UHGV virus genome: UHGV-0151084
From: a virus
DNA length: 49,280 nucleotides
Strand: one strand, 5' to 3'
The notes beneath the pieces were generated by a model that had not been told where the DNA came from, did not search any database, and saw nothing but the letters and a program-made list of their open reading frames with translations. The translations under genes were made by a program, and so were the position numbers. This document shows, piece by piece, positions 5,752 through 42,254 of this stretch. Within the stretch, counting starts at the first letter, position 1; every line of letters begins with the position of its first letter.

Positions 5752-8536
5752 AACTTAATCTCCGTTGTTGGAACATATGAGCACTCAATTTCTTCTCAAA
5801 ATCAGAATATCCCGCATCTAATGCTCTTTTAGCTGCCGCCTCAGTTTCCTTTGGTGAACCAGCCGGAAGATTGATTACAGGTGAATAGGTTATTCCACCA
5901 GTCACAGCATTAACGTTCTGGCGAGGTCCAGAAGTCCCGGCGGCAGATATCCCGTGAGGTGATAAATTTGATTGCCCGAACTTGGTTGCTATTGCATTCT
6001 GTAAGCTGTTATTCCTGCTAACACCTGATGCCAGAGTAGTCATTATTGCACCACCTGACTTTGTTAGCTGTGAGAATGGACCTTTTTTCGCGTCAGAGAA
6101 CGGTAAATACTCACGTACAGAAGAAAAAACGCCTTTCACTTCATTAATTAAAGCATTTGCTTTTGATTTTATCCCAGTGATTAACGTCTCAATTATTTTT
6201 GCGCCTGACTCACTCCAGTTTATTCCAGACAAATAAGCCGTTACAGATTGGAATGCTCTTATAAAGAGTCCAACTGGTGAAAAACGCATAAAAACAGATA
6301 CCAGTGTATCTATGATTTTCTTTCCTGTTTCGCTCCAGTTAATACCAGAAAGGTAATTTGTTGTAAGTTTAAATGCTTTAATTAAGAACGGAAGCGGAGA
6401 CATCCATTTAAAAGCACTAATTAATGTACTGTAAATTCTTACTCCTGCCGAACTCCAGTTTATGTTGGAAAGATAATCCCATGCTTTACCAAACATAGAT
6501 ATAATCCATCCATTGAGATCAAAGTTTAAGATAAAGTTTTTTATAGCTTCAAACGATTTAACTGTATATTCCTTAACAGAAGGCCAAACTCTGACAGCAT
6601 AATCTCTGATCTTATCCCAGTTCTGATAGAGCAATATTCCTGCGGCAACCAGCGCAGATATAGCCATCTGAATCCACCCGAAGGGTGTTAGCTTTGTCGC
6701 TACAGATAAAGCCAGCATAGCTACCCTACACGCTATAACCACACTTTTCATGGTTAGAAACGCACCTGCCGCCATCACAATCTGAGACACAAAATTGGGG
6801 TTGTTAGCTACAAATTCACTAATTTTTGTAATCAGCGGAACCAAAACACTAAGCGCGGCATTCAAAGCAGGTTGCAAGGCCTGACCAAAACTTAATGATG
6901 CATTGCTAGCCTGAATACGTAATTGTTTCAATCGCTCCGCATTGTCTTTCGTTATGTTGGCAAAATCGCGGTCAATAACAGCACTTCCAGCACCAAGAGA
7001 TGTTGCTTTGATTCTCTGGTATTCCTTCCAGTTTTGAATCATCGGACGAACAAAGTTCTGAACCTGCATATCGCCAAATAGCTCACCAAGTAACTTCTGA
7101 TCTCCGTTCTTAGTCATTTTCATGACAGAATGCATTGCAGCTTCGAATGGATTCTTCCCTTTTTTCTGCGCTGTTGTGACAATTTTATATAAATCTACAC
7201 CGAAATTTTTCTTTGCTTTTTTTAGGGTTTCAGGGGAAAGTATTTTCGCCAAAAAGTTGTTCATATTATTAGCAGCCTCATCCGAAGTTGCAGCACCTTT
7301 GCGAGCTATCTGCAAAGCTGCCCCCATCGTCGCGGCGGCTTCTTTACCTCCCATTTTTAATGCCTGGAACTGAGCACCAAGCACAGGAAGATTTTTGGCC
7401 ATATCTTTAAATTCAAAGTTTCCCTCTTTCCCTGCCTGAACCAGAATCCCCATTGCAGACTTCATTTGAGATGGATCAATCTTCAATGAGTCACTTAATG
7501 TAAATGATGCTTTCGAGACATCGAGGATATCAGAGCCAGTAGCTGTAGCTGTTCGCCCAATAGTTAGTAGATTCGCCTGAGCCTCTTTATAATCCTGCCC
7601 AGCAGCGACGAGAAAACCCTGAGCGGCCTGAATATCAGATGCAAACTGGTTGGTGGCCGTTCCGGTAACAAGCATCGCCTGCCCCATCGCCTGAACTTCT
7701 TCCGGCTTCATATCTGCCGTAAGACCAATCATTTTGTTTTCACGATTGAAATTTGCTGCATTGTTAGCAGCAGCAAATGCACCAGCCGCTACAGCACCAG
7801 TTTGTAATCCTGACCTTACAAGTTGACTCTTTGCCTCACCAAGATGCTCTCGCTTCAATTCACGCTGCCTTTCCAACGCGCGGTTTAACTCCTCCTGAGC
7901 ACGTTTTACTGCAAGAACATTTTTCCGTGCTTCAGCCAACGCATTTTTATAGCTGTTAATTTTATCAATACGTTGTTTTTCTAATGCCCGGTTAAGTTCC
8001 TCCTGCTGTTTTTTCACTTGCTGAACATTTGCTCTGGCTAAAGCCAAAGCCGTTCTGTAGCGGTTAACCTGCTCAACGCTACGGACCTGAGCCTCACGAT
8101 TACGATCAATGCTGGCTTTAAGCTCTTTCTCTCTTGAGGCCAAAGCTCTGGCAGATGTATCAGCTCCCTGATAGGCAGACTTTAAAGCGGCCAGTTCTTC
8201 ACGCTGAGAACGTAGTGATGCTCGTAAATTCGATGAATGTGTTTTTGCCTTCTCAAAGTCACGAAGCATCGCTCTGGTTGGATTGGCCGTGTTTTTTATT
8301 TGCTTCTGTAACTCTTCAACGCGAGCGGCAGCTTTATGATATTCGAGGGCAGTCTGTCCAACCTTTACTTTTACAGATTGTAGCTTTTGAATTTCCCCAT
8401 GTTCTTTCGTTAATCCAGCAAGCTCGGCATTTAATTTAGCAACAGCCTGATTAGCTGTAGTAAAACTTTTGGGGAGAGAGGCGGCAACTTTGCCGCCAAT
8501 TTCAAAAGCCAGCTTAAAGTTCTTATTGCTGGCCAT
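5744..8536 (-). CDS. Tail tape measure protein
   Basis: 930 aa; long coiled-coil N-terminal half (repeated QEELNRALE-type heptads), hydrophobic segments, repeated SGINWSE motifs; follows chaperone frameshift pair. Confidence 0.85.
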   Translation of the reverse strand: MASNKNFKLAFEIGGKVAASLPKSFTTANQAVAKLNAELAGLTKEHGEIQKLQSVKVKVGQTALEYHKAAARVEELQKQIKNTANPTRAMLRDFEKAKTHSSNLRASLRSQREELAALKSAYQGADTSARALASREKELKASIDRNREAQVRSVEQVNRYRTALALARANVQQVKKQQEELNRALEKQRIDKINSYKNALAEARKNVLAVKRAQEELNRALERQRELKREHLGEAKSQLVRSGLQTGAVAAGAFAAANNAANFNRENKMIGLTADMKPEEVQAMGQAMLVTGTATNQFASDIQAAQGFLVAAGQDYKEAQANLLTIGRTATATGSDILDVSKASFTLSDSLKIDPSQMKSAMGILVQAGKEGNFEFKDMAKNLPVLGAQFQALKMGGKEAAATMGAALQIARKGAATSDEAANNMNNFLAKILSPETLKKAKKNFGVDLYKIVTTAQKKGKNPFEAAMHSVMKMTKNGDQKLLGELFGDMQVQNFVRPMIQNWKEYQRIKATSLGAGSAVIDRDFANITKDNAERLKQLRIQASNASLSFGQALQPALNAALSVLVPLITKISEFVANNPNFVSQIVMAAGAFLTMKSVVIACRVAMLALSVATKLTPFGWIQMAISALVAAGILLYQNWDKIRDYAVRVWPSVKEYTVKSFEAIKNFILNFDLNGWIISMFGKAWDYLSNINWSSAGVRIYSTLISAFKWMSPLPFLIKAFKLTTNYLSGINWSETGKKIIDTLVSVFMRFSPVGLFIRAFQSVTAYLSGINWSESGAKIIETLITGIKSKANALINEVKGVFSSVREYLPFSDAKKGPFSQLTKSGGAIMTTLASGVSRNNSLQNAIATKFGQSNLSPHGISAAGTSGPRQNVNAVTGGITYSPVINLPAGSPKETEAAAKRALDAGYSDFEKKLSAHMFQQRRLSFG

Positions 8537-18690: not shown

Positions 18691-19251
18691 TTATTCTTCC
18701 TGCTTAATAAATCGGGATTCCTGGAGCGCCTGAAGCGCAAAATTAATCTCGTCTTCAATAATGCGTTCGATCTCCCTGGCTGTTTTGCCTTCACAACGGG
18801 GAGCTGCTCTTGGAGCAATACTAAATAAGCGGCTACGCAATTCATTAGCTGCCAGAAATGCATCATCCCTGACCGCATCTTTAGCGATGAGAGAGCCTTC
18901 CTTTTCTTCAAATTCAAGGCGTTTCAGCTTTGCCTGATAAATTTTTTCTGCGGTCTTAGCCTTGTTGAATTGCACCGCAACACCGGAAGTACCACCAGCT
19001 AATCCGGCATCATCAGCGGGTAACTCTGGTTGTTCCGAAGATATCCCATGCCCTCTTTTTCCATTTTCAGCAGATACCTCACGACCAACCTGTCGGCTCG
19101 CTTCATAAGCCGCACTAGCTTTATCAAAATCCAGCTTGCCGCTTTTCAGCACTGGAATGCGACCGGAACGACAGAGCTTCGTAACCATTGCCGGAGAAAT
19201 ACCTTTTCGGCGGGCAAACTCTGACTTACTGACGATGGCCATTACTTGCAA
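18691..19251 (-). CDS. Terminase small subunit, Nu1-like
   Basis: 186 aa with N-terminal HTH (SKSEFARRKGISPAMVTKLCRSGRIPV), directly upstream of large subunit. Confidence 0.65.
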   Translation of the reverse strand: MQVMAIVSKSEFARRKGISPAMVTKLCRSGRIPVLKSGKLDFDKASAAYEASRQVGREVSAENGKRGHGISSEQPELPADDAGLAGGTSGVAVQFNKAKTAEKIYQAKLKRLEFEEKEGSLIAKDAVRDDAFLAANELRSRLFSIAPRAAPRCEGKTAREIERIIEDEINFALQALQESRFIKQEE

Positions 19252-19832
19252 CCATTAGCAAGATACTGAACAAATCCCTCATGCGTTTCATGCGCGTCGT
19301 GGTACTGACGATAAACATCCAGCAACAATGCAATTTCCATATCCGTCGCGGGAATACGTTCTTTATCAATAGCCAGGTACTTAATTTGAACAACAGGGGA
19401 AGAATTATCGTCTTCTTCCTGCGGCTGTTCATCGCTTAACATTTCGTCAAGCTCTGCATCATTAAACCCAAGCAGATCAATATCAAAATCATCATCCATT
19501 AACGCTTTGACTTCTTCGGCCAGAAGCTGCATATCCCAGCCAGCATTTAAGGCCAGCTTGTTATCTGCAATCCTGTAAGCCTTCTTCTGTTTTTCAGAAA
19601 GGTTACTCAACCGAATCGCTGGAACTTTATCCATTTCCAGAATTTCGGCTGCTGCAAGCCGCCCATGCCCCGCAATCAGTTCATTCTTTTCATCGATCAG
19701 CACAGGATTAGTGAAACCGAACTCACGGATACTGTTCACCAACTGTTCAACTTGCTCATCTGAATGAGTCCGTGAATTTTTGGCGTATCTGAGCAGCTTA
19801 CCGACTGGTAAATATTCGATTTTTAGAGCCAT
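19242..19832 (-). CDS. ParB/Srx-like nuclease domain protein
   Basis: 196 aa; ParB N-terminal motifs (NSRTHS, IAGHGRLAAA); stop overlaps the small terminase start. Confidence 0.7.
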   Translation of the reverse strand: MALKIEYLPVGKLLRYAKNSRTHSDEQVEQLVNSIREFGFTNPVLIDEKNELIAGHGRLAAAEILEMDKVPAIRLSNLSEKQKKAYRIADNKLALNAGWDMQLLAEEVKALMDDDFDIDLLGFNDAELDEMLSDEQPQEEDDNSSPVVQIKYLAIDKERIPATDMEIALLLDVYRQYHDAHETHEGFVQYLANGCK

Positions 19833-21125: not shown

Positions 21126-22505
21126 CTACTTAATCAACGGCCGGAAAGCCGCCAGTACATCATCAGATCGTCCGATTGTTGAACCACCAGGCAACGGCAA
21201 CTCAAACTCAAAACGAACAGCTTTCTCCAGACTCGCCCAACTAAGGGAATCATCGTTAATGACGTGCAAATACCAGCTCTTACAGTTGAATATTGACCGC
21301 TTAATCCTGAAACCATGTACACGACACAACTGCTTCACTTCCTCATCAGAGTGAAACTTCTGGTAAAACCAGTGCCCCTTCCGGTACAACGCGGTAAAAC
21401 CGTTATGATCAATAAAATAAAGCCGGCTTTTGGAACTCGCCGCTTGTGTCTGCTTCAGGACTGTTTCCAGCTCTCCACGGCTACGGCCAGAAAAGAATAT
21501 TGACCCACCAGCTTTACACAGCCCTTTCAGAACCGTCAGAACGGACCATTCAGCCTCGACACTATCGACCGAGTTCAAAACGCTATCGCAAATCACGTAG
21601 TCGTAACGCCCTCGCGTTTTTAAGTCGTCCACCAGCGTATCAATCATCCGGTTTGTTGCGGTCCTATCCAGAGTGTTTCCAGCGCCCTTACGGCGGAAAA
21701 GCTCAAGATCATGCAGGTTATATCCCTTTGCCCTGAGCATTCGCGCGTAGTCTCCCTGACCCGAACCAAAATCAATTCCTCTTGGCGTCTTGGCAATGAT
21801 CGGGAGGATCAACGACTCATACAGGTTTGATTTCAGGCTGCCACCATTACGCAACCGCATAAGCTGCGCATACGTCTGGATGTATGTTGTTTTCTCCAGA
21901 TGAGAATACTCAAATACACCATAAGTTTTATTCAGATAACTTTGGTATTTTTCCTTCTCAACATCAGGGATCACAAACACCGTTAGCGGTGTGCGCGTCA
22001 TCTTCGCTGCTAATGCATACTGAGCACAGTGAATAACCTCGCCAGACTGAGTAGCAACACAACCACCCCACGGACCATACTTGATAACCAGTTCCGCTAT
22101 GTTCTTTCGAACATATGCCATTTTCGCGCGCATATTGCCTGAGATCTGGCTTGCCGATACCTGAACAAAACCATGCTTATCTTCCAGACCGGACACCCTG
22201 CAACGCTCATCTCCGCTGTCAAAATCCGTTCCGTTATGCAGTTGGTTAAACCGTACTTCGTCGTATACCGTCGTTTCACAGGGCAACACATACACCGCAG
22301 CACGCGTTATTCCCAACTTACGTAGCGCCTTCGTCCTTTGGTGTCCCGCCACCAGCAAATCGCCGCGCACTATCAATGGCTTCACAAGCCCCAGCTCCCT
22401 GACGCTTTCCGCCAGCCTCGCAAGATCATCCTCACCGATAAAACGCGGGTTATATTCCGCGCCGCGTAGGTGCGTTATGTCGTAATTCAGGTGAAGCATC
22501 AGCAC
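21126..22505 (-). CDS. ParB-like N-terminal domain fused to class I SAM-dependent methyltransferase
   Basis: 459 aa; N-terminal ParB motif (LLVAGHQRTKAL); C-terminal half with SAM-binding motif IDFGSGQGDY and DYVICD. Confidence 0.7.
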   Translation of the reverse strand: MLMLHLNYDITHLRGAEYNPRFIGEDDLARLAESVRELGLVKPLIVRGDLLVAGHQRTKALRKLGITRAAVYVLPCETTVYDEVRFNQLHNGTDFDSGDERCRVSGLEDKHGFVQVSASQISGNMRAKMAYVRKNIAELVIKYGPWGGCVATQSGEVIHCAQYALAAKMTRTPLTVFVIPDVEKEKYQSYLNKTYGVFEYSHLEKTTYIQTYAQLMRLRNGGSLKSNLYESLILPIIAKTPRGIDFGSGQGDYARMLRAKGYNLHDLELFRRKGAGNTLDRTATNRMIDTLVDDLKTRGRYDYVICDSVLNSVDSVEAEWSVLTVLKGLCKAGGSIFFSGRSRGELETVLKQTQAASSKSRLYFIDHNGFTALYRKGHWFYQKFHSDEEVKQLCRVHGFRIKRSIFNCKSWYLHVINDDSLSWASLEKAVRFEFELPLPGGSTIGRSDDVLAAFRPLIK

Positions 22506-23122
22506 ACCTCCCCTGCCAGCAATGCGGATACAAATCCGATATAGCTGCCATTATCATCAACATAACGAGATACCGCGCAGTCAAAACGATCCGCTTCCTC
22601 ATCCGTTGCCGGGATTTTATGACCTCCAAATGACAGGTACTGAACTTTTACGCCTGATTTGGCCTCATCCTTCTCAAATGGGATATCCATACCTTCTGTG
22701 TCATCGTAGACCGCCGCACTCAATAAGTTATCCAGTTCGCGCTGAGTAAAACCAATTGAGTCCAGAGCAAAATCATCGGCCGCAAGATCTGCAAGCTCCG
22801 CGCTTAACAACTCTTCATCCCAACCAGCATTCAGCGGAATACGGTTGTCGGCCAGACGATATGCCTTCTTCTGATTCTCCGTTAGCCCTTCCAGAACAAT
22901 GCAGGGAACATCATCCATCCCCAACTGAGTGGCCGCAGCAATTCGACCATGACCAGCAATTACAACGTTGCTTTCGTCTATCAGGATCGGATTAGTCCAT
23001 CCGTACTCCTGTATGCTGGCAACAATCTGATCTACCTGCTCCACGGAGTGTGTGCGAGCGTTCTTTTCATAACCAATCAACACAGAAAGTGGTAAAGAAA
23101 CCACATTAAGATGTTTTGTCAT
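22499..23122 (-). CDS. ParB/Srx-like nuclease domain protein (paralog of 19242..19832)
   Basis: 207 aa; clearly alignable to the 196-aa paralog (ARTHSVEQVDQIVASIQEYGWTNPILIDE, IAGHGRIAAA). Confidence 0.7.
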   Translation of the reverse strand: MTKHLNVVSLPLSVLIGYEKNARTHSVEQVDQIVASIQEYGWTNPILIDESNVVIAGHGRIAAATQLGMDDVPCIVLEGLTENQKKAYRLADNRIPLNAGWDEELLSAELADLAADDFALDSIGFTQRELDNLLSAAVYDDTEGMDIPFEKDEAKSGVKVQYLSFGGHKIPATDEEADRFDCAVSRYVDDNGSYIGFVSALLAGEVC

Positions 23123-23768: not shown

Positions 23769-23966
23769 AACATCACCTGAAAATAAAAAGCCCCGCGACA
23801 CCGCGAGGCTGTAAGAGTTACTTTCGATAGAAATCAAGGCGCATTTGCTCCCGCTTAAGCCGAAAAGCTCTCTGCGCCACTAAGATGCGCCACAGGACAC
23901 CAGCAATAACCACCAGCGAGATACAAAAACACACGGCCACAACCATCAGAAAAATGCAAAGACCAT

Positions 23967-24456: not shown

Positions 24457-24530
24457 CCCATGTTCTCCTTTGTCTGGATGTAAAAAAGCCCCGGCAATTG
24501 CCGAGGCTCGTTGTTCGTTATCGTTACGGT

Positions 24531-24731
24531 TTAATGCTCGCGTCGTCCGGCGACAACTTCGGATTTGTATTTCAGGTCGCCCAGCAAAAATTGCAGTTTA
24601 AGCATCTTTGCCGCCGTGTAGTTCCCTGATTCCACAACCTCTTTCATGAGGTCATAAACGGCCGCAACATCATCAGCCAGGAACTCTTTGCGTTGCTGCT
24701 CAGTCGCACGTTTGAAGGAAATACGCATCAC
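24531..24731 (-). CDS. Hypothetical protein
   Basis: 66 aa ORF, overlapping stop/start with upstream gene. Confidence 0.3.
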   Translation of the reverse strand: MMRISFKRATEQQRKEFLADDVAAVYDLMKEVVESGNYTAAKMLKLQFLLGDLKYKSEVVAGRREH

Positions 24732-24997
24732 TCATCATCTCCTGCCGCACATACAACCTCACAAAAAACATCAGCGGAATGTTTCTTTTTGAATGAATGG
24801 CGCTCAAAACCGCACTCAATATCAGGCGCAAAAACATCCACCACATACGGTCTTTCAGAATGTTTGTTTTCCCAACGATAAACCGTAGTGACGTTGAAAT
24901 GTTTTAACGCTTCACGGAACTCAACGCTGCCCGTCAGGTTTTTTGAGGTCAGGTATTGCAGGAGGCTTTTTACTACTTCACGGTCTTGTACTTTCAT
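24728..24997 (-). CDS. Hypothetical protein, first gene behind copy 1 of the repeated promoter module
   Basis: 89 aa ORF; ATG preceded by GGAGATAACCCG as in the two other module copies. Confidence 0.45.
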   Translation of the reverse strand: MKVQDREVVKSLLQYLTSKNLTGSVEFREALKHFNVTTVYRWENKHSERPYVVDVFAPDIECGFERHSFKKKHSADVFCEVVCAAGDDE

Positions 24998-25115
24998 CGG
25001 GTTATCTCCGGTTTAGCCAGGGCGGGTATCGCTCGGTTTCGGGTATAACCATAGGAAATTTTTTCCCACCTGTAAAGCAATTTTTATATAAATATATAAT
25101 TATATAATTCTATGC
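24998..25115 (-). promoter_or_regulatory. Repeated promoter/leader module, copy 1
   Basis: About 105 bp near-identical to 32517..32640 and 42106..42225; contains TTTACA, AT-rich palindrome and conserved leader ending in RBS. Confidence 0.6.
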
Positions 25116-25697: not shown

Positions 25698-26016
25698 GTT
25701 AGTTGTGTCTCCGGCGCTTATCTCCGGCAGTCATAACGCTGGCCAGCTCTACAGCAAACACAACGAAAAGGGCACTAACCAGACTGATTAATGCCCTTGC
25801 CTGTTGTGTGCCGGATATCGCCCGACAACGCTGTTTTGGTAACACGGCTACAGTTCCGTGCCGCTCCAGCTTTTACCCCTTTGCGGATAACAGGCCCTGC
25901 CTGTAACTTAGCCCCACGTTCGCCCGAAATGCGCACCAGGCACGCATAAAGATGAGCATAAAGATGAGCACGAAGAAGTAACTCCACCGCGCTTATCTTT
26001 ATGTGTGAGAGTGAAT

Positions 26017-26092
26017 TGGTGGCCCCTACCGGATTTGAACCGATGACCGTGCGATTATGAGTCGCCTGCTCTAACCACTGAGCTAAGGGGCC
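26017..26092 (-). tRNA. tRNA with anticodon CAU (tRNA-Ile2 / Met-type), CCA encoded
   Basis: Minus-strand 76 nt GGCCCCTTAGCTCAGTGGTTAGAGCAGGCGACTCATAATCGC...GGGGCCACCA folds as cloverleaf; acceptor, D and anticodon arms match the enterobacterial tRNA-Ile2 pattern as I recall it. Confidence 0.85.
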
Positions 26093-26261
26093 ATATTTGA
26101 TTTGTTTGTCTGGTGTGGCGCCGCGCACGAAAATCCCAGCCAATAAATTCAGGATTTTTGGGCGCGGCGGCATATCAGACAAACATGGTTGATGCGTGCG
26201 CCCATGAGAAAAGCGCATAGAATGTTGTAACTATATATTTATATAATTATAGAAATATATA

Positions 26262-26471
26262 TTACTTTCGGCAGTTGATTTCCCATGCCCTGTTATGAGC
26301 CAGAATATCTTTCTTTGTCTGGCGGTCCATAACATCGATGTCGTGATCAGTCAGGTAGATGGGCTTTACCCAATCACAGGCGGTATCAACCACCACCGGG
26401 ACGCTTCCACGACTCCCGCAGCTCGCGATCAACATCGTCATCAGCCATATGGTTAACACTCTGCTGTACAT
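26262..26471 (-). CDS. Outer-membrane spanin (Rz1-like lipoprotein)
   Basis: 69 aa with signal peptide and lipobox-like LIASC; overlaps the 3' part of the i-spanin in another frame. Confidence 0.6.
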   Translation of the reverse strand: MYSRVLTIWLMTMLIASCGSRGSVPVVVDTACDWVKPIYLTDHDIDVMDRQTKKDILAHNRAWEINCRK

Positions 26472-27868: not shown

Positions 27869-27881
27869 TGAAATCCTCGTT

Positions 27882-27912
27882 AAAAAAAAAGCCCCGCCGA
27901 AAAAGGCAGGGC
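27882..27912 (-). terminator. Rho-independent terminator immediately upstream of lysis cassette
   Basis: Minus-strand RNA hairpin GCCCUGCC/GGCGGGGC (one G-U) followed by U9. Confidence 0.6.
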
Positions 27913-28254
27913 TTCATAAAGCAACAAATTACGCGGTAATCGCTTAACGCAGTTTTACTACGTTAAATGAAACACTACACCCAGTTACCACCTAAAACAA
28001 GGTTTTCCCATAAAAAAACCTTCAAATCGTGGTTAATTGATCAATAAAAAAACAATACTCAACTTTTTACCAAACGAACATCCCGGCCAGGACTTCCATA
28101 ATATTCGCCGATATGCCACTGCTTAAGTTGAGTAATCTTCTCCAACTTAACTCCCACAGAATCCAATTTCTGCCATGTTTTCGGTTGTATGTGCCTCATT
28201 ACCCGCTCTGAATATCTGAATACTGCTCGTAATCGCATGGCTTCTCACTACAGC

Positions 28255-30794: not shown

Positions 30795-31093
30795 TCCTCA
30801 TTGGCTACTGGGGTGTTCCTCTCCAGTACCTTGTCCGCATCAGCGATCAGGTTTGCCAGACTCTTGTCTGAAATCTTCGTTACCGGAGTCGTTGGTTGCT
30901 CAAACTGCCCGATAGGTTTTATCGTGCTTAAAAGGAGGCGACGGCGGGAAAGTGGTGCCCCACAACGACGGCCATCTTCCTTGCGATATGTTTCTTTCGG
31001 ACCAACACACCAGGTTGTCGGCGTTTCGCGCAACTTCACTCTTTTCTCACCATCATTGGTAATGATTATTCCGGTATGGGTTTTGATGCTCAT
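30728..31093 (-). CDS. Hypothetical protein
   Basis: 121 aa ORF. Confidence 0.35.
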   Translation of the reverse strand: MSIKTHTGIIITNDGEKRVKLRETPTTWCVGPKETYRKEDGRRCGAPLSRRRLLLSTIKPIGQFEQPTTPVTKISDKSLANLIADADKVLERNTPVANEEWWQDFRAAMLELQERRREELK

Positions 31094-31392
31094 GCCACAG
31101 CCCCTCTCAACGGCTTAACTTTGGCTAATAAGGTGTTAAACAACATGGAGTTAGGATTCATGCCAAATGGCAATTCCGGTTTAGCGGAGTAGTACAGGCA
31201 ACCATTTATTTTCCTGGTTGTTATCTGTCCTTCGGCAACCATGCTTCTCAGTCTGCAACGCATAGAGTTCTGCGACACACCAATGTGCTCCGCGATTACG
31301 TCCACTTTTGAACATGGGTGATCGGTCAGGAAATTAATCACATCTTGGGGGTTAATAATTTTGCGTTTCATTGTCGAGGCGTCCTTATACAT
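31090..31392 (-). CDS. Putative winged-helix DNA-binding protein
   Basis: 100 aa; HTH-like segment VDVIAEHIGVSQNSMRCRLRSMVAEGQI. Confidence 0.45.
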   Translation of the reverse strand: MYKDASTMKRKIINPQDVINFLTDHPCSKVDVIAEHIGVSQNSMRCRLRSMVAEGQITTRKINGCLYYSAKPELPFGMNPNSMLFNTLLAKVKPLRGAVA

Positions 31393-31448
31393 TTATATAA
31401 ATATATAATTCTATATACGGCGGGAGACATCCCGCCGTAGGCTTACTG

Positions 31449-32516
31449 TCAGGCTTTCAATAGCGATTCTTTCAGATATCGGGCATCAGCCAGGGCGTTT
31501 GGAGTAATCTTACGAACCCATGCATTACGGGTTGGACTCCACTTAAAGGCGCGTGATTTAAGCAGCGAACGAATGTTTGCCTCTGGTTTGCCAGGGAAAT
31601 AAAACAGGATGCGGTTATCCTCTGGATCTATCTCCATAGAAAAGCCGTCGTATTCTTCGCGCTGTGCTCCTGTTACAGACTTGACCGATTCAAGCTCCTT
31701 AATACGGCTCTGTAGTCGTTTGATTTCGGCCTTATTGTTGCTCAGTGCGTATGAAGGGAATCCGATGTGCCCACAGAAATCTCCGGCCAGTAACTCTTTG
31801 GCTTCGCTTTCTGTAAACCTGAGATCGATTAATGCAGAAAGCTGCTGTAATTGGTCTTTTTTGTATTTGCGAATGGCCTTATTTGCGGCCTTCATTTTGA
31901 CGTGTGACTTCATGCAGCCTTGCAGCTTACGAAGCAACTTAAATAGCGCATCAGGATCATCAGACGAAATTCCATTACGACCAACACCTGCGGCTTTGCT
32001 CTCGTAGTGTGATGCTTTACTTTCGCATTCAACAAACGCTTTTCTGAATAACGCATCAGCTTTAGACAAACGGCGGCGATGGCCTTTCGCGCTATAATGG
32101 TCAACTAAAATCGGCTGGCCTAACGGGATCACATCCAACAGGTCATGCGCTCGCTTATGCGCTACCGCACCTTCTTTTCTGGCTTTTTCTGCACGAGCAA
32201 TATATCGGGCAAGACGCGCGTTCTGGCGTTCCTGATAGGTGTTTACGTAATCATCTCCGCGCTGCTGCTGTTCAAGCCATGCTTTGCGCAGATCTTCTGT
32301 TACGTCCACCAGCTCCGCAGGGATACAACCAGTTTGGGCTTCATAAGAGTAACCATCCTCATAGATGCGCCCATCGTCTTCAACAAAGAAAAAGGTTTCG
32401 TGCTCATCGCTTTTGACCATACGACCATTAACATGGCGTAATAGGTAGCCAGTATCAGTGCTTAACAGGCTGTTAGGGTTGTTGATCCAGTCAGAAATAA
32501 TTACTTGTTTATTCAT
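31449..32516 (-). CDS. Hypothetical protein, first gene behind copy 2 of the repeated promoter module
   Basis: 355 aa ORF; basic central region; identity uncertain. Confidence 0.4.
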   Translation of the reverse strand: MNKQVIISDWINNPNSLLSTDTGYLLRHVNGRMVKSDEHETFFFVEDDGRIYEDGYSYEAQTGCIPAELVDVTEDLRKAWLEQQQRGDDYVNTYQERQNARLARYIARAEKARKEGAVAHKRAHDLLDVIPLGQPILVDHYSAKGHRRRLSKADALFRKAFVECESKASHYESKAAGVGRNGISSDDPDALFKLLRKLQGCMKSHVKMKAANKAIRKYKKDQLQQLSALIDLRFTESEAKELLAGDFCGHIGFPSYALSNNKAEIKRLQSRIKELESVKSVTGAQREEYDGFSMEIDPEDNRILFYFPGKPEANIRSLLKSRAFKWSPTRNAWVRKITPNALADARYLKESLLKA

Positions 32517-32640
32517 CAGATTTCTCCGGTTTAACCAGGGCGGGTATCGCTCGGTTTCGGGTATAACCTTAGGAAATTTTTTCCCACCTGTAAAGCACTT
32601 TTTATATAAATCTATAATTATATATTTATAGATTTTCGAT
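32517..32640 (-). promoter_or_regulatory. Repeated promoter/leader module, copy 2 (directly downstream of Q-like gene)
   Basis: Near-identical to copies at 24998..25115 and 42106..42225. Confidence 0.6.
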
Positions 32641-32685: not shown

Positions 32686-33063
32686 TCACTCTCTTCGCTT
32701 TTTCAAATAGTCGACAACATACGCCCTGGCTTTTGCCAGCTTCCGGCGATACTGTCTGAGACTAAGAGAAAGGGCGTGGGCTTTATCAATATGCGGTGCA
32801 TTTATGTCGAGGCCCCGAATCTCCCACGCCCCGTATTCAATTCGGACAACCAGCGCCGCAGTCTCATCAACTACCGTGAGGGCCGTCACCGCTCCCTCGA
32901 TACTGGTTTCCAGTGAGTCATTTGGTGCGCCGCCCCCTCCGGTAAACTGGCAACGCGTAACCATCATCATTTCTAACATCGACGCGAAACCGCTACGGGC
33001 GTTGCAGCCATTGCGCACCCACAGCGCCCATAGCTCAAACAAGCTATCCAGATCGCGTCTCAC
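32686..33063 (-). CDS. Putative antitermination protein Q-like
   Basis: 125 aa; N-terminal LFELWALWVRNG resembles the LERWGAW pattern of Q-family antiterminators; followed by promoter module. Confidence 0.45.
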   Translation of the reverse strand: MRRDLDSLFELWALWVRNGCNARSGFASMLEMMMVTRCQFTGGGGAPNDSLETSIEGAVTALTVVDETAALVVRIEYGAWEIRGLDINAPHIDKAHALSLSLRQYRRKLAKARAYVVDYLKKRRE

Positions 33064-34033: not shown

Positions 34034-34545
34034 TGATGGCCCCCGTCATTTCTGGTGCTTTTCACCGTGCGGCTTCTTAAAAACCTGCCATCACGAACAA
34101 CAGACACTTCTCGTTTACCCAACCTCATTTCACGGCGGTAACATTCAGAAAATGCCTCGTCCGGCATCATATAAATGCGACGCTTCGCCTCCGTATCCAG
34201 AAGGGAACGGCTTGGGGTTACATATAAAAACGACTCATCAATAGGGACAAAACCACGAGCAAGAATTGCTGGCAGAATGCCAGGAAGAACGCAGAAAACA
34301 GCTCCACGATGCAGCAACATCTGGTACTCCATGACCTCCGTTATCCCCGTGACTACTGTGACGGTGTCACGTCTGTTACGGCTGGCAACCAGTCGCTGCA
34401 CACGTCCAATTTTCTGATCTACAGATAGATGTTTGCTATCGTTATCAATATGATCGATAACAAATCCTTTAATCGTTTGATCAAGGTAGTGCACCACCTG
34501 CGATTGAATCTGGTGATTATCACCAAAGAAGGCCAGAATCATCAT
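34030..34545 (-). CDS. Hypothetical protein
   Basis: 171 aa ORF, coupled to Cro-like gene. Confidence 0.35.
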   Translation of the reverse strand: MMILAFFGDNHQIQSQVVHYLDQTIKGFVIDHIDNDSKHLSVDQKIGRVQRLVASRNRRDTVTVVTGITEVMEYQMLLHRGAVFCVLPGILPAILARGFVPIDESFLYVTPSRSLLDTEAKRRIYMMPDEAFSECYRREMRLGKREVSVVRDGRFLRSRTVKSTRNDGGHQ

Positions 34546-35036
34546 TCCTCAAGCCTCCCAAGTGCTGAACGCCGGGCGTTGCTAATCTCCTTATGAATCA
34601 GCTCGATATCGCTGGAATCTTTATTCTTAAGCTCCAGCACGGTAATCGCATCACGAACCTCTGAAACGGTTACGTGTGAGTGTTTCCAGCGAGCAATGAA
34701 TCGCGGACCGCGTAGATTGCAACGCTCCGCAGGCATCCCCAGCTCAGAGAAAACCGCTTTCAGCCTTGATAAGCAGTTAACAGGGAGGTTCCCTTTGATC
34801 TTGTTCTGCCGAACCGATGTGCCATCGCTACGCTGGCGCTGACGTTCGGCAAAATCTGCCGCCCATTGCTGGACGTTAATCCGGCCTTCCGAATACGCCA
34901 CCAGCAGCGTCAGGTTATCCGCACGAGGGAATCTCTCGAAGCGATACCAGGCACCAATCAGTGATGACGTAAAGCCAAACTTTCTGGCAACACCAATTTG
35001 GCCTCCATTTTCGTCAACCCACTCCTGAAAGGTCAT
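34542..35036 (-). CDS. Cro-like early regulator
   Basis: 164 aa, N-terminal HTH, divergent from CI-like repressor across an operator-rich intergenic region. Confidence 0.5.
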   Translation of the reverse strand: MTFQEWVDENGGQIGVARKFGFTSSLIGAWYRFERFPRADNLTLLVAYSEGRINVQQWAADFAERQRQRSDGTSVRQNKIKGNLPVNCLSRLKAVFSELGMPAERCNLRGPRFIARWKHSHVTVSEVRDAITVLELKNKDSSDIELIHKEISNARRSALGRLEE

Positions 35037-35055
35037 TTAACGAACTCCAGTTAAA

Positions 35056-35173
35056 ACCACGATATGTGGTATTAAAACCACATATCGTGAGTTTTTCAAT
35101 GGGCGAAACAAAAAATAACCTTCTATTTGTGGTCCACCTCTCGTCTTACCATGTGAAAACCACTAAATGTGGT
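35056..35173. promoter_or_regulatory. Immunity operator cluster (ACCAC-N5-GTGGT sites at 35056-35070, 35077-35091, 35159-35173)
   Basis: Three 15-bp inverted-repeat sites in the divergent Cro-like / CI-like intergenic region. Confidence 0.65.
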
Positions 35174-35210
35174 AATGTATAAATAACCCACCATTCACGA
35201 TTGATGAGAC

Positions 35211-36334: not shown

Positions 36335-36364
36335 CTGAAAGCGGGCTAACGCCCGCTTATATGA

Positions 36365-36460
36365 TTATAGATTTATATAATTATATAAAACGCTTTTCAT
36401 CCGCCAAAAAGTTGGTTATGCTTACCTCGTTCTATAAATATAGATTTATATAATTATATA
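36365..36460. repeat. AT-rich iterons (ATAGATTTATATAATTATATAA x2) upstream of parA; candidate partition site / operator
   Basis: Two copies at 36365-36390 and 36431-36460; a third between parA and the ParG-like gene at 37141-37170. Confidence 0.5.
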
Positions 36461-36484
36461 ACCAAACACATGGAGTCTCGACAA

Positions 36485-37138
36485 ATGACTATCTCTGTAG
36501 GTATTTTCAACGGAAAAGGCGGCGTAACCAAATCAACAATTGCCCGTGCTTTAGCAGTTGCTTATGCAAAGGCCGGCTGGAATGTATGCCTGATCGATAT
36601 GGATGTGCTTAACGGAACGGTAACGCGTTGGGTACAACGCAGAATGGCCAACAATATCGAACCTGCAATCGCGGCGCAGCCGTGCGGCACGCCATCACAA
36701 GTCCAGAAAATCATCGAATCAGAAGTATACGACCTGGTTATCGTCGATGGCGGTGCCTACGCATCTGAATCAGTACCGAAGCTCTCTGAATTTCTGGATA
36801 TGGTTATTTTGCCAACCAGATTCTCTACCGATGACCTGGAAACCACCGTTAACACAGCTCATGGCATCGTTAAAAAGGGTGTGCCAATCAAGAAAATTTG
36901 CATGGTGTTCTCAGGCGCGGCTGAAAACGAAGCCGACTACATTGAAGCCCAAGAGTACCTGGCTAATACGCCATACTTTGTTGTCGATAAGTACATTCCC
37001 CACAAGCCAGCTCTGAGCAAAGCTCAGGATAAGGGCTTAAGCCTCATTGAATGCTCATACGTTGCGCCACGCAAAAAGGCAGACGACGTTATTCAGGGGA
37101 TTATCAACCAGCTTGAGGCTCTGACTACTGCCGCGTAA
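36485..37138 (+). CDS. parA: ParA-family partition ATPase (small, type Ib-like)
   Basis: Deviant Walker A GKGGVTKST; start placed at ATG 36485 with GGAG RBS. Confidence 0.8.
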   Translation: MTISVGIFNGKGGVTKSTIARALAVAYAKAGWNVCLIDMDVLNGTVTRWVQRRMANNIEPAIAAQPCGTPSQVQKIIESEVYDLVIVDGGAYASESVPKLSEFLDMVILPTRFSTDDLETTVNTAHGIVKKGVPIKKICMVFSGAAENEADYIEAQEYLANTPYFVVDKYIPHKPALSKAQDKGLSLIECSYVAPRKKADDVIQGIINQLEALTTAA

Positions 37139-37181
37139 TATATAATTATAGTTTTATAGATTTATATAAGAGGGGATACAC

Positions 37182-37430
37182 ATGGCCGCACCATCAAAAC
37201 CACCAAAGAAGAACAGCAAAGGCGTACCGCCATCGATCGAACAACCGCAGGTTTTCGACCCGACTGAAACGCCAGCCAGAACCAAATCAGGTGGGGCACA
37301 AATGGCGTTTAACGTCGACCCTGAATTTAAACGCGAGTACAAAACGTTCGCCAGCTCAATGGATATGTCATTGAAAGAAGTGCTGACAAAATCTTTTGAG
37401 TTACTCAAGGCTCAATACAACCAGAAGTAA
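37182..37430 (+). CDS. ParG-like ribbon-helix-helix partition protein
   Basis: 82 aa, basic disordered N-terminus and C-terminal RHH-like segment, directly after parA. Confidence 0.5.
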   Translation: MAAPSKPPKKNSKGVPPSIEQPQVFDPTETPARTKSGGAQMAFNVDPEFKREYKTFASSMDMSLKEVLTKSFELLKAQYNQK

Positions 37431-37652: not shown

Positions 37653-37676
37653 AAAAAAGGCCCCCGAAGGGGCCTA
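37653..37676. terminator. Hairpin terminator (GGCCCC-CGAA-GGGGCC) with A/T runs
   Basis: Perfect 6-bp GC stem; T-run on minus strand. Confidence 0.55.
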
Positions 37677-38096
37677 ATCGCTACTTGCTGCTAATGTTTA
37701 TCGTCACATTCAGAGCGTTATCAGTAATCTTCCAACCCTCCCCATGTGGCGTAAACAAAGCTCCAGTAACAACGATAAAAATACACATACAGTATTTTTT
37801 CATTGTATGGCCCTTACAGGCCGTTTCACGGCATCCCCACCGACGAAAACAACGCGAGAGCAAGCACGGCTGCTTGTGCTTGCATGTACGGCAACAGGAA
37901 ATCCTCCCCTAAAGTCGGTGCCCGGGTGCGAATCGGCGGGAAGGTCCACAGGTATTTTACGATTATTTTAAGATTAGTAATAGGAAAGAAATTAAACGAA
38001 AAAAACAGTTTATTTTCACAAAATCAGTAACCTACCCACAATCTGTGAGTTTGCTGACACAACAAGAACCACAATTTTTTGATGTATAATAGTGGA

Positions 38097-38291: not shown

Positions 38292-38396
38292 TGAATGCGC
38301 CATTGGTGGACACTTTCCGAGCCGTAGCAAAATCTACGGTCGGGATTAGCCTCCTGAATAACACGATGGCGCATACCGCGTTAGCGGTTTTTTTAT
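38292..38396 (+). ncRNA. Candidate structured RNA upstream of antirepressor operon
   Basis: TTGAC at 38286, internal hairpin CCGTAG/CTACGG, terminator ACCGC-GTTA-GCGGT + T7; shares GATTAGCCTC with the downstream leader. Confidence 0.3.
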
Positions 38397-38556
38397 GCGT
38401 AGAGCACTGTTACGCCCAAATTATGGTGGGTCGTACAGGGGCGGAGAAATCCGCGCCGGTTCGTCATTGTGTCCGGTAAGGCTAACCCTGTACGGCTCAC
38501 CACCATTTGATTAGCCTCGAATGGCGGTGATAGTTCCATATACTGGAGATATCACA

Positions 38557-38748
38557 ATGACAAACCTACCCCATGACTATTACGTCAACCTCGTAAAGAT
38601 CCTTCTCAAGAAAGCCTCATACGCCGATAAATTCCGCCTGGCTGAAATCATCGAGCGCGAAGCTATGCGCATCGCCAGCAACGATAACGCTGTTTCTGAC
38701 GCAAAAATCTCCCTCGTAACCAAAGTAGTTATGGGAGGTGCAAAATGA
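38557..38748 (+). CDS. Small protein translationally coupled to antirepressor
   Basis: ATG 38557 with GGAG RBS; stop overlaps antirepressor start (ATGA). Confidence 0.4.
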   Translation: MTNLPHDYYVNLVKILLKKASYADKFRLAEIIEREAMRIASNDNAVSDAKISLVTKVVMGGAK

Positions 38749-40013
38749 AAACGCTTCCGACCGTTAACACCCTACAGCCTATCCTGCATAACCAAATCCC
38801 TGTCATTACTACCGAGTTACTGGCACAGCTTTACGGCGTATCTCCTGTACGCATTCGACAAAATCATCATGAGAATAAGGAACGCTTCATTGAAGGTAAG
38901 CACTACTTCAAAATTGAAGGTAACGAACTTCGAGAGTTAAAGCACAAAGTGACTCAAGATAATGATGTGAAGAACAAAAACTCTTTAAGAGATTCAGTTA
39001 ATGACGCCCCCTCTAAAAGAGAGAGCGACGAGCACAGAGTAGTTTTAAACTACTCTGTTAACCACAAGGTAACTAAAAGTCACTCTGTGAAAATCGCCCG
39101 TAACGTTCGCTCCCTCATTCTCTGGACAGAACGCGGGGCTGCACGTCACGCCAAAATGCTTGAAACTAACCAAGCGTGGGATGTGTTCGAACGGCTGGAA
39201 GACTGCTACTTCAACCAGAACGCGCAAACGGCCGCGACCGTAACCGTCTCGCCAAACAATGCTCGTGAGGTTGTCGATACGCTCAACGCCAAACCGATGT
39301 TTTACATTAAGGTGTGCAATAACGAGCCACTCACAACCTCGGCCGATGTTGCCCAGGCATTCAGCACCACAAACAATTCCATCGTTATGGCCATCGATGC
39401 GTTACGCATTCCTCGCACAGCTGCGGCGCGTCATTTCTTTAAAGAGCAACGACCGTTGGAAGGAAGCGACCGCGAAATAACAATCTATCGCATGACAAAA
39501 GACGGATTTACCTTGCTCATGGAGAGCATCGACGGTCCAGGCGTAAAAGATATCAAGCTGGCCTACATTGAAGCCTTTAACGCTATCAGCAGCGTGTTAA
39601 AAACACAGTACGAGCGTGATCTGGCTAAACGACTGTACCAAGAAAAAACGATTATCCGCGCGGCAACAGAGCATAATCGGCTATTAACGGAACCGAACTA
39701 CCGCAAGACACTAATCAAAGAGTTTGACAAGGCGACGGAGAAAACTAAAGCGGCGCTAAGTCTGCCAGCAATGACTCAGGAAAATGTGATATCAGCCTTA
39801 CTTCTTGATCTGCTCAGGAACGCCAGAGCACTTATCAGCTTTGACGAGGACCTGAATCCTCAGCTCAAGCTACTACCACCGACAGGCAAAGTAGTCGACC
39901 AGGCTGATCACAACAGCATACTCAGCGTTCTGGATGCAAACCTGCCAGCCAGGACACTACAGGATCTGATAAAAACATGTGCTGATAAGCTGGCACAGAA
40001 AAGCAGACCATAA
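38745..40013 (+). CDS. Antirepressor (ORF6N-type N-terminal + Rha-type C-terminal domains)
   Basis: 422 aa; N-terminal IPVITTELLAQLYGVSPVRIRQNHHENKERFIEGKHYFKIEG; central TTSADVAQAF...TIYRMTKDGFTLLM resembles Rha. Confidence 0.7.
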   Translation: MKTLPTVNTLQPILHNQIPVITTELLAQLYGVSPVRIRQNHHENKERFIEGKHYFKIEGNELRELKHKVTQDNDVKNKNSLRDSVNDAPSKRESDEHRVVLNYSVNHKVTKSHSVKIARNVRSLILWTERGAARHAKMLETNQAWDVFERLEDCYFNQNAQTAATVTVSPNNAREVVDTLNAKPMFYIKVCNNEPLTTSADVAQAFSTTNNSIVMAIDALRIPRTAAARHFFKEQRPLEGSDREITIYRMTKDGFTLLMESIDGPGVKDIKLAYIEAFNAISSVLKTQYERDLAKRLYQEKTIIRAATEHNRLLTEPNYRKTLIKEFDKATEKTKAALSLPAMTQENVISALLLDLLRNARALISFDEDLNPQLKLLPPTGKVVDQADHNSILSVLDANLPARTLQDLIKTCADKLAQKSRP

Positions 40014-41621: not shown

Positions 41622-41724
41622 CCCAATGTAAGTTATCGGCTTGCCCCACAATAAGTTATCTATCTTCAAACGCCCCCTATATTAACACGCGCAAAGTGTC
41701 AAAATGACACTTTGCGCATTGTGT

Positions 41725-42105
41725 TTACTTAACGAGGAATAAAAATGGTTTATTGTTCGGCGGTGTAATCGGGGCTGGCTCGCTTTTGCTCATGCGATCA
41801 GTGTACCAGGCCAACTCCTTGTCAAAGTAAGCCTGATTAAAATAGGCCATGAATGTAGTTTCAAATCCATAACGACCGCTAATACGCAGCATCTGATTGC
41901 CGTTCTCTGTTTCCAGATATACCTGGGCACGTTCCTGATTCTCCTTCAGCCAGGTTAAAGCCTCATCGCATGAGGACACACGATACTCATCATCGTAGCA
42001 GTCATCGATGCGGCTTGAGGAAGAACGGCAAATCACGCCAACAGAACCAGCCAGGATAGTTTGAATTTTAAGGAAAGCGTTTTTGCGGATTTTAATCATG
42101 CTCAT
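41725..42105 (-). CDS. Hypothetical protein, gene behind copy 3 of the repeated promoter module
   Basis: 126 aa; N-terminal hydrophobic signal-like segment. Confidence 0.45.
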   Translation of the reverse strand: MSMIKIRKNAFLKIQTILAGSVGVICRSSSSRIDDCYDDEYRVSSCDEALTWLKENQERAQVYLETENGNQMLRISGRYGFETTFMAYFNQAYFDKELAWYTDRMSKSEPAPITPPNNKPFLFLVK

Positions 42106-42225
42106 CGGGTTATCTCCGGTTTAACCAGGGCGGGTATCGCTCGGTTTCGGGTATAACCTTAGGAAATTTTTTCCCACATGTAAAGCACTTTTTATATAAA
42201 TCTATAATTATATAATTCTGTGAGC
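42106..42225 (-). promoter_or_regulatory. Repeated promoter/leader module, copy 3
   Basis: Near-identical to copies 1 and 2; preceded upstream by a terminator at 42227-42254. Confidence 0.6.
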
Positions 42226-42226
42226 A

Positions 42227-42254
42227 CAAAAAAGCCCCTTTGCAACAGGGGCTT
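42227..42254 (-). terminator. Rho-independent terminator downstream of HigA-like gene
   Basis: Hairpin AGCCCCT/AGGGGCT followed by T6 on minus strand. Confidence 0.6.

Follow-up and report, generated by a model that had tools for sequence, protein, structure and literature searches.

Three copies of a promoter cassette in an Escherichia coli phage-plasmid family and their possible wiring to the partition locus through shared repeat arrays

The virus genome UHGV-0151084 (49,280 nucleotides, the whole of which is called the window here) is, by its sequence, essentially an entire circular phage-plasmid of around 48-49 kb of the RepA/ParA type. At 24998-25115 it carries a segment which the original prediction had described as one of three nearly identical copies of a promoter/leader module of around 120 nt. 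This is confirmed: a repeat search recovers one family of three members, at 24994-25114, 32512-32632 and 42102-42222, with the minus strand as the sense strand; in ungapped comparison copy 2 is 87% and copy 3 95% identical to copy 1, much more than chance would give. The same order of elements is found within each copy: four AT-rich repeats of 8 bp, an A-tract, a -35 box, a 17-bp spacer with a palindrome, a -10 box, a hairpin, a Shine-Dalgarno (SD) sequence and an ATG. The repeats also occur around the partition gene parA of the same element. The features of the three copies, together with the genes they precede (cargo genes from here on), are the following:

24995-25113, minus strand: cassette copy 1; its array of four units lies at 25082-25113, and unit one shares bases with the MT-A70 stop codon
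25071-25076, 25052-25068 and 25048-25053, minus strand: -35 TTTACA, palindrome and -10 TATGGT of copy 1
25015-25038, 25006-25009 and 24995-24997, minus strand: hairpin, SD GGAG and ATG of copy 1
24486-24997, minus strand: cargo of copy 1, an 89-aa gene (24728-24997) and an overlapping gene of around 65 aa; a terminator at 24486-24509 ends the unit
32514-32631, minus strand: cassette copy 2, with array 32600-32631, -35 32589-32594, palindrome 32570-32586 and -10 TAAGGT 32566-32571
32533-32556, 32524-32527 and 32514-32516, minus strand: hairpin, SD and ATG of copy 2
31418-32516, minus strand: cargo of copy 2, a DUF3560 gene (31449-32516, 355 aa), then a GC hairpin without U-run (31418-31437) and then another array
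32686-33063, minus strand: gene of a 125-aa Q-like protein with a helix-turn-helix (HTH) resembling sigma region 4, whose best full-length structural match is the Q protein of phage 21 (Q21)
42103-42221, minus strand: cassette copy 3, with array 42190-42221, -35 42179-42184, palindrome 42160-42176 and -10 TAAGGT 42156-42161
42123-42146, 42114-42117 and 42103-42105, minus strand: hairpin, SD and ATG of copy 3
41689-42105, minus strand: cargo of copy 3, a 126-aa gene (41725-42105); a bidirectional terminator at 41689-41717 ends the unit
42232-42254, minus strand: terminator of the upstream HigB/HigA-type operon, which insulates copy 3 from transcription upstream

Each copy had been placed directly 5' of a minus-strand gene, and all three do end at the ATG of a minus-strand open reading frame (ORF), of 89, 355 and 126 aa. 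The cargo genes are unrelated, as had been stated: their products belong to separate PHROG families, and no BLASTP alignment is obtained between the 89-aa and the 126-aa protein. We also recovered the block substitution just before the ATG of copy 2 (GGAGAAATCTGATG versus GGAGATAACCCGATG) and the distance of this copy from the Q-like gene, 46 bp separating its upper edge from the 125-aa ORF's stop; the array proper starts around 55 bp past that stop. Regarding the long minus-strand run which copies 1 and 2 were thought to head, the three terminators claimed inside it were found by the scan at 27888-27915, 24486-24509 and 23789-23810. However, the units of copies 1 and 3 are themselves bounded by terminators, and a hairpin without U-run comes after the cargo of copy 2; the copies do not simply head one long operon.

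Promoter and leader of the cassettes

All three copies have the form TTTACA-17-TA(A/T)GGT, and the one of copy 1 (TTTACA-17-TATGGT) was flagged by the promoter scan. Divergent relatives were fetched from the Logan assemblies and IMG/VR with the Q-like protein as a handle, and a Serratia plasmid was reached via an 82-aa protein described below; the loci of the relatives, some of which are referred to by L and a number, are partial and their cassettes per element are a lower bound (the Logan contig L007, for instance, is cut at the plasmid-maintenance region). A cassette profile search found homologues in E. coli, Salmonella, Serratia and four further lineage groups, with at least 2-4 detected per element, standing before different small ORFs. 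The cassette is a family trait of one group of RepA/ParA phage-plasmids.

We aligned 27 distinct cassettes from at least 7 lineages. The spacer measures 17 bp in all 27. The first T, the A and the final T of the -10 (columns T34, A35 and T39; TAnnnT) are invariant, as is T11 in the -35, with T12 nearly so, and little or no variation is seen in the A-tract or in the palindrome's outer bases (TAGG...CCTA). With both boxes and their 17-bp spacer in every copy and the key positions kept in the homologues, the promoter and leader reading of the original prediction is well supported by the alignment; the transcription start is predicted 6-9 nt after the -10.

The palindrome of the spacer is imperfect (TGGGAAAAAATTTCCTA, TAGGA-N7-TCCTA type) and is absent from five lineages that retain the Q-like gene. 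Its form TAGG-N9-CCTA was seen, in the scanned loci, only within promoter spacers. One such spacer belongs to a fourth promoter:

43761-43789, minus strand: fourth promoter, with TTGCCA at 43784-43789, the palindrome TAGGAAAAGATTTCCTA at 43765-43781 and TACCAT at 43761-43766; the spacer is 17 bp

This promoter, downstream of repA, has a perfect copy of the palindrome and carries neither array nor hairpin; equivalents were found in Salmonella, Serratia and L026.

The leader hairpin reads AACCgaGCGauaccCGCccuGG(C/U)U and begins 10-11 nt past the -10, that is, 1-4 nt past the predicted start. In the 27 sequences, pair 50-73 is GC in 14, AU in 10 and GU in 3 cases, pair 51-72 is GC in 15 and AU in 11, and pair 56-66 is GC in 15, AU in 9 and GU in 3. 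Altogether 91.8% of the hairpin cells are paired, compared with 23-45% when the partners are slid; the covariation score is 0.336 versus 0.188 in shuffles, none of 500 shuffles attaining 0.336, and RNAalifold predicts the identical helix. These figures support a hairpin maintained by compensatory changes. The changes from GC to AU pass through G-U intermediates on the sense strand only and therefore the structure is an RNA feature of the mRNA. The independent covariation events are few, because the changes are inherited within lineages. Between the hairpin and the ATG stands AAACCGGAGAUAA, which includes the SD GGAG, and the SD context is nearly invariant inside lineages. An outer stem GGUUAU/AUAACC predicted in copies 1 and 3 was ruled out: the -10 itself, or sequence preceding it, would supply the 5' arm, and copy 2 and other lineages have lost the stem. 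As a terminator the hairpin does not qualify either, as it lacks a U-run, sits in the 5' untranslated region (UTR) downstream of the promoter and is not listed by the terminator scan.

Repeat arrays shared with the partition locus

The upstream 32 nt or so of each copy are an array of 8-bp units (TTATATAA/TTATAGAT and complements), a second repeat family which the original prediction had not set apart, and five more sites of this kind lie beyond the cassettes. The window contains 8 arrays, versus 0 in 100 Markov-2 simulations. The unit TTATATAA occurs 15 times in the window and not at all in the Serratia relative; the Serratia units (TTAAATAT and similar) occur 5-7 times in that relative and 0-1 times in the window. 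The sites beyond the cassettes and the genes around them are as follows:

36357-36388, plus strand: array A, which ends 5 bp upstream of the parA -35
36394-36422, plus strand: putative parA promoter as read from the sequence, TTTTCA at 36394-36399, a 17-bp spacer and TATGCT at 36417-36422
36430-36461, plus strand: array B, between the parA promoter and the parA SD
36470-37138, plus strand: parA, a 222-aa Walker-type partition ATPase of type Ib size without N-terminal HTH; Pfam CbiA/ParA/MipZ from residue 10, PHROG ParA-like
37138-37169, plus strand: array C, between parA and the 82-aa gene
37182-37430, plus strand: gene of an 82-aa ParG-like protein, a candidate ribbon-helix-helix (RHH) centromere-binding protein and the proposed array binder
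31377-31416, minus strand: cassette-free array just before the SD of gene 31090-31392; after it comes AGGACGCCTCGACAATG, similar to the 5' region of parA
26223-26270, minus strand: cassette-free array around 130 nt upstream of a tRNA-Met (26017-26092) and the MT-A70 gene; it ends in a TATAGT box

The order in the parA region is a terminator, array A, TTTTCA-17-TATGCT, array B, SD, parA, array C, SD and the 82-aa gene. The layout of array, promoter, array and SD at parA is found in 13 lineages (the window and 12 others), and parA with the small gene downstream is present as a pair in every relative. At parA 5 bp separate the array from the -35; in the cassettes the separation is 7 bp in one register. 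All of the 47 distinct cassette sequences have an AT-rich array of their own lineage's type upstream, the array sequence being lineage-specific and switching in concert at all sites of one element. Furthermore, 12 of the 13 lineages have the AT-rich 9-mers of the arrays that flank parA again at 4-9 sites dispersed over the element; no dispersed recurrence of these 9-mers was found in L028, where the parA repeats contain GC. The units are found in both orientations, with 3-4 of them per array, and their types are:

E. coli and Salmonella: TTATATAA type
L007, L019 and L021: GATATAAA/TATATC
Serratia, L005 and L023: TTAAATAT/TTTAAATA
L026: TCTTTAAA
L008: AATTAAATAA
L028: GCACGAAA

We infer that the arrays are binding sites of the 82-aa ParG-like protein. 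In the AlphaFold2 model of this protein residues 1-40 are disordered, residues 41-46 are extended and residues 47-59 and 62-80 form helices, a topology compatible with RHH; the N-terminal half is basic. With hhalign, residues 37-74 match residues 34-71 in the RHH region of the TP228 ParG, although weakly (E 5e-4, probability 30%). The Pfam search gave no match, and the homologues are confined to this element family. Foldseek returned meaningless matches because half of the protein is disordered, and the comparison of the 82-aa and 125-aa proteins and their profiles with the PDB sequences gave no meaningful matches. The residues of the beta-strand that presumably face the DNA follow the array class: Q-A/S-N goes with TTATATAA, Q-L-R with GATATA and x-N-N with TTTAAAT, and the classes P-H-S and P-N-K were also found. 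Two comparisons separate this protein from the Q-like one. Between L026 and L007 the Q-like helix is the same, whereas the arrays and the beta-strands differ; between L003 and L023 the arrays and the beta-strand triad are the same, whereas the Q-like helices differ. Both point to the small protein rather than the Q-like protein as the probable array binder.

Three observations concern the neighbourhood of these sites. The translation-initiation region of parA (GGAGTCTCGACAAATGAC) is conserved at the DNA level across lineages whose ParA proteins are just 45-55% identical; the places concerned are 36462-36490 and 31392-31412 in the window, 6364-6388 in L007 and 27700-27730 in L003. Right behind an array, another gene begins with a near copy of it (AGGAcgCCTCGACAATG). 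It may be a second shared regulatory element. The tRNA-Met (CAT, 26017-26092, minus strand) lies within a 147-aa ORF (25775-26218), which is therefore probably spurious. Finally, the ryfA RNA family is matched over its full length at 37653-37949 (minus strand; 143 bits, with a gathering score of 80), directly downstream of the 82-aa gene and convergent with it.

Possible explanations of the cassettes and their arrays

Our preferred explanation, towards which we lean without great confidence, is that the promoter cassette is wired to the partition system of the element via the shared repeat arrays. Each copy is the head of a self-contained expression cassette made of a sigma-70 promoter, a leader with a hairpin, a fixed SD region and a short cargo gene. 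The small RHH partition protein would bind the arrays upstream of the cassettes and around the parA promoter. The promoters of parA and of the three cassettes, with two or three other sites, would then form one partition-protein regulon, a set of dispersed centromeres, or both, in the manner of omega on pSM19035 and of the SopB IR sites on N15. The effect of the arrays on the promoters would likely be repression, scaling with the concentration of the partition protein. The palindrome in the spacer would be a second input, from a dimeric factor, and the 5' hairpin most likely stabilises the mRNA. What is shown is the anatomy of the copies with its conservation, the covariation, and the occurrence of the arrays at the par locus as well as at the cassettes; the array binder, the sign of the regulation, the centromere activity and the part played by the hairpin are inferred. 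A more ambitious form of this explanation makes the type Ib RHH partition protein a genome-wide regulator, with all eight arrays acting both as dispersed centromeres and as operators and thereby coupling segregation, accessory gene expression and the late lytic switch; we consider this form doubtful. Arrays gating the parA promoter, the three cassettes and the site after the Q21-like gene would then be a convergent re-invention of the SopB/IR arrangement of N15 from unrelated parts.

Several points weigh against the wiring to the partition system. The RHH assignment of the 82-aa protein is weak, given the hhalign probability, the lack of a Pfam match and the uninformative Foldseek search. A distance-correlation (Mantel-like) test does not single out the small protein: the correlation with the arrays ranges from rho 0.3 to 0.6 across the backbone proteins, and equally good or better correlations with array divergence are given by ParA, by the entire Q-like protein and by a 164-aa protein of the early operon (34542-35036; rho 0.5-0.6). 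This test is not discriminating because the backbone proteins co-diverge through shared descent, which accounts for much of the covariation. Furthermore, AT-rich DNA right upstream of a -35 can serve as an UP element without any dedicated protein, and 3-4 units per array are at the lower limit shown for ParA activation in the omega system. The repeats bound by Q21 and the array that follows the Q-like gene in most loci also fit a reading of the arrays as Q sites.

The original prediction favoured this last direction, reading the module as a triplicated Q-dependent late promoter. At each cassette the RNA polymerase would pick up the Q21-like protein, by way of the arrays or the palindrome, and would then read through the terminators at the ends of the cassettes and ahead of the lysis and packaging genes. 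We regard this as unlikely and as supported only in part. Over the full length, Q21 is the best match to the model of the 125-aa protein; both proteins share the N-terminal LELWxxWV motif and the protein is plausibly Q21-like, with no match to a Pfam Q family. In 14 of 15 loci the Q-like gene has an array behind it (0-51 bp past the stop in 8, in the next intergenic gap in 6). Strong terminators lie within the run, and the strongest one of the region (27888-27915) closes an untranslated stretch of around 190 nt and has the holin start just 20 nt beyond it, and therefore the lysis genes need read-through. The lambda Q-binding element lies between the -35 and the -10, as the palindrome does here. 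Because Q21 binds direct repeats of 8-bp subsites (bioRxiv 10.1101/651190), the arrays as Q sites stay a live rival. Nevertheless, a TAnnnT pause element was found in the first 35 nt or so after the -10 in none of the E. coli, Salmonella or Serratia copies; it is absent from 20 of the 27 homologues, and in the other 7 it stands in the initial transcribed region at non-conserved places. The array units occur in both orientations, unlike the direct repeats of the Q21 site, and the arrays that bracket the parA promoter in 13 lineages are left unexplained. While the arrays diverge strongly, the Q-like recognition helix is nearly constant (rho 0.11 for the C-terminal 45 aa with the HTH, not significant), and five lineages, as said above, keep the Q-like gene without the palindrome. 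Copy 3 drives one terminator-closed gene in the plasmid-maintenance region, outside any late region; most cassettes of other lineages also lie in that region, among them all those detected in L019-L022 and L027, which drive single, mostly terminated genes, and in these lineages only an array follows the Q-like gene. Judged by the defining features tested, the Q-dependence of the three copies is not supported.

Two explanations dispense with the arrays as protein sites or make them secondary. According to one of them the cassette is a passive, portable promoter, strong and constitutive, whose AT-rich part is an UP element or curved DNA, copied before accessory genes and homogenised by recombination, with no array-binding protein; its chances seem small to us. 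The downstream ORFs are unrelated and without assigned function, and L021 and L027 have tandem one-gene units that mostly end in a terminator. The identity between cassettes is 0.82-0.98 within a genome versus 0.54-0.89 across lineages, even at syntenic positions (the E. coli copies are 0.97 identical among themselves and 0.89 to Salmonella); the cassette behaves as a shuffled and homogenised promoter unit. The A-tract before the -35 resembles a proximal UP subsite. There is also a precedent in the promoter-early stem-loop (PeSL) cassettes of T4-type phages (PMC2839356). However, an UP element does not explain that the concerted, lineage-specific arrays are also found downstream of promoters and beside SDs (arrays B and C, 31377-31416); the 8-bp register and the near-palindromic units suggest recognition by a protein, and the hairpin has no U-run and stands in the 5' UTR, hence it is not a terminator of the PeSL type. 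The original prediction had also listed a recently duplicated mobile promoter cassette: the shuffled and homogenised behaviour in the relatives agrees with it, but the link to the partition locus was missed. The other explanation takes the leader as the functional core, the hairpin and AAACCGGAGAUAA being the target of an RNA-binding protein or a small RNA that co-regulates all cassette mRNAs, with the DNA elements secondary. It has in its favour the compensatory changes with G-U on the sense strand only, the nearly invariant SD context per lineage and the c4-like, isrK-like and ryfA-like RNAs encoded by the element, and yet we find it very improbable. No antisense match of at least 12 nt to the leader was found elsewhere in the window, including these three RNA loci, and no Rfam family matches in the cassettes at the gathering thresholds. 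The folding energy is modestly better than that of shuffles (z -0.6 to -2.8) and the loop sequence is variable (AUACC, AUAGU, ACAAC, AUAG). Moreover, a 5'-terminal hairpin can act as a barrier to 5'-end-dependent decay, which suffices to explain it, and the position of the hairpin would be that expected from the geometry of a 5'-terminal stabilising stem-loop. Thus, of the conserved riboregulatory leader that had been offered as an alternative, the hairpin is supported by covariation, whereas the search of the window for an antisense partner came out empty.

Binding of the arrays or the palindrome by the CI-type repressor was ruled out, since the cI/early intergenic region has another motif and no array. 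There, at 35055-35180, between the cI-like gene and the leftward early operon, three copies of ACCAC-N5-GTGGT are found, one of them inside a 13-bp inverted repeat; these copies, which differ from both cassette elements, probably serve as operators for CI. Regarding the late promoter, the untranslated stretch mentioned above (27869-28058, minus strand, around 190 nt) has with its terminator a layout like lambda PR'-tR' or N15 p52. The true late promoter may lie in this stretch, where TTGTTT-17-TAGTGT is a weak candidate.

The element family and known systems

The Yersinia phages vB_YpM_39/41/44 are 97-98% identical to the window, and more than 60 non-mobilizable plasmids of E. coli, Salmonella and Klebsiella are 95-99% identical to it, one of them being the plasmid of the reference strain E. 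coli ATCC 25922 (NZ_CP009073). The element carries replication, maintenance and lysogeny genes (a RepA initiator, the small ParA, a HigB-type toxin-antitoxin pair and a CI-like repressor with an S24 domain) as well as a P1-type c4/antirepressor block, a myovirus structural module and an invertible tail-fibre segment. Two candidates for relatedness were discarded: the paper on vB_YpM_HQ103 describes an unrelated 32-kb phage, and the pSLy3 group of Pfeifer et al. is part of the SSU5 supergroup of around 100 kb, a different family.

The search of other genomes that had been suggested found the cassette in 74 of 5,426 complete E. coli genomes and in at least 6 further lineages. In the E. coli genomes 214 of the 217 places are on plasmids of around 48 kb, with a median of 3 per genome and nearly always three copies, and the cassette core is restricted to 62 non-mobilizable plasmids, all of this family; three matches to 'conjugative' plasmids were not reproduced once the AT-rich and terminator flank was removed from the query. 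A common host repetitive element, the outcome that the original prediction had named as speaking against it, is ruled out, because the E. coli places are nearly all on plasmids and the core is confined to this plasmid family.

Regarding the cargo genes of the relatives, L021 (1131-3360) and L027 (1243-3620) have four tandem cassettes each, spaced 600-800 bp apart, every one with its own array and one small ORF, and most of these units end in a terminator. The cargo families MTSIEIANTIL..., MTKKA... and MSYVTIRRNAF... recur between lineages without a Pfam match, and the Pfam search of ten cargo proteins gave zero matches.

Other parts of the window showed further features. At 38321-40013 (plus strand) lies a block like P1 ImmI, with an isrK-like RNA (38321-38394) and a C4 antisense RNA (38419-38507), both above the Rfam gathering scores, then small ORFs and then an ORF6N-type antirepressor-like gene (38745-40013, plus strand); therefore, a c4-type antisense control seems to be used beside a CI/S24 repressor in this 48-kb phage-plasmid, which is not P1. 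Three proteins with ParB/Srx N-terminal domains are encoded beside the terminase genes (19242-19832, 21126-22505 and 22499-23122, minus strand) and are distinct from the pair of ParA and the 82-aa protein. Two repeats are tandem-like and lie within genes: a 93-nt unit present three times with 73-84% identity at 445-837, near the tail-fibre end of the window, and a 45-nt motif at an exact spacing of 120 nt within the tape-measure gene (6195-6479).

Among known systems, the lambdoid Q/PR' arrangement, as in phage 21, is similar in that a plausibly Q21-like gene is followed by a constitutive-looking promoter with a conserved internal DNA element, and in that terminators precede lysis and morphogenesis genes. 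However, the cassettes lack a sigma-dependent pause element, the promoter is present three times and once outside the late region, the terminators follow translated cargo genes and not a short leader, and the Q-like protein has no Pfam Q-family match. The PeSL of T4-type phages are repeated mobile regulatory cassettes (PMC2839356, PMC4122927) and resemble ours as units of a sigma-70 promoter and a stem-loop before small unassigned ORFs, with gene shuffling and homogenised copies; in the PeSL the stem-loop terminates transcription, and their phages are lytic, whereas here the hairpin lies in the 5' UTR without a U-run and is accompanied by arrays and a spacer palindrome. The cassette, as a compact promoter with two proposed operator inputs, a covariation-supported 5' hairpin and a fixed ribosome-binding site, would explain how new small genes join the element under uniform control, and the same fixed cassette is a ready test bed for such control.

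The partition genes are most similar to ParF/ParG of TP228, where a small ParA is also followed by a small protein, in that case an RHH protein of around 76 aa with a disordered N-terminal tail; ParG is the closest relative of the 82-aa protein at the protein level, although the match is weak. The TP228 boxes are ACTC tetramers confined to the par locus, and that system has no promoter cassette. Its parH centromere/operator consists of arrays of short boxes with AT-rich spacers beside the par promoter (PMC3130281). In pSM19035 the small RHH protein omega is both centromere binder and global repressor, and its heptad parS arrays overlap three promoters (copS, delta and omega), including that of the ParA gene (PMC9499535). 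As here, arrays of short contiguous repeats in either orientation lie at several dispersed promoters, among them that of parA. Nevertheless, omega uses the 7-bp WATCACW with 7-10 units per array in a non-phage Firmicute plasmid, whereas our element has 8-bp units of the TTATATAA type, 3-4 per array, with sites also downstream of promoters and in lytic-gene regions, and the binding is putative. If the small protein does bind the arrays, partition proteins as global regulators would reach beyond Firmicute plasmids such as pSM19035.

To our knowledge, the wiring of the plasmid and phage programmes of phage-plasmids is known in detail only for P1 and N15. In N15, the IR sites together with SopAB reportedly facilitate Q-dependent late expression. 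Its genome (NC_001901) has four SopB sites: one falls within repA, another 183 bp past the Q-like gene, a third 21 bp upstream of the -35 of the late promoter as annotated, and the last close to the right end. Both elements are plasmid prophages whose partition sites (putative ones in our case) are scattered and not clustered, with a site after the Q-like gene and upstream of a promoter -35; here an array ends 7 bp before the -35 of each cassette. The differences are also clear, as N15 is a linear siphovirus with the type Ia system SopA/SopB (an HTH ParB), four single 18-bp palindromes and the late promoter p52, whereas our element is a circular myovirus with an IncFII-type RepA, a ParA of type Ib size, an 82-aa RHH candidate, eight arrays of 8-bp units and a triplicated promoter, and the sequences are unrelated. 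In a common E. coli phage-plasmid family one repeat type is shared by the partition locus, standardised promoters and the neighbourhood of the putative antiterminator gene, and if the small protein binds it, the link between partition and late expression in N15 would be a recurrent solution and not an oddity.

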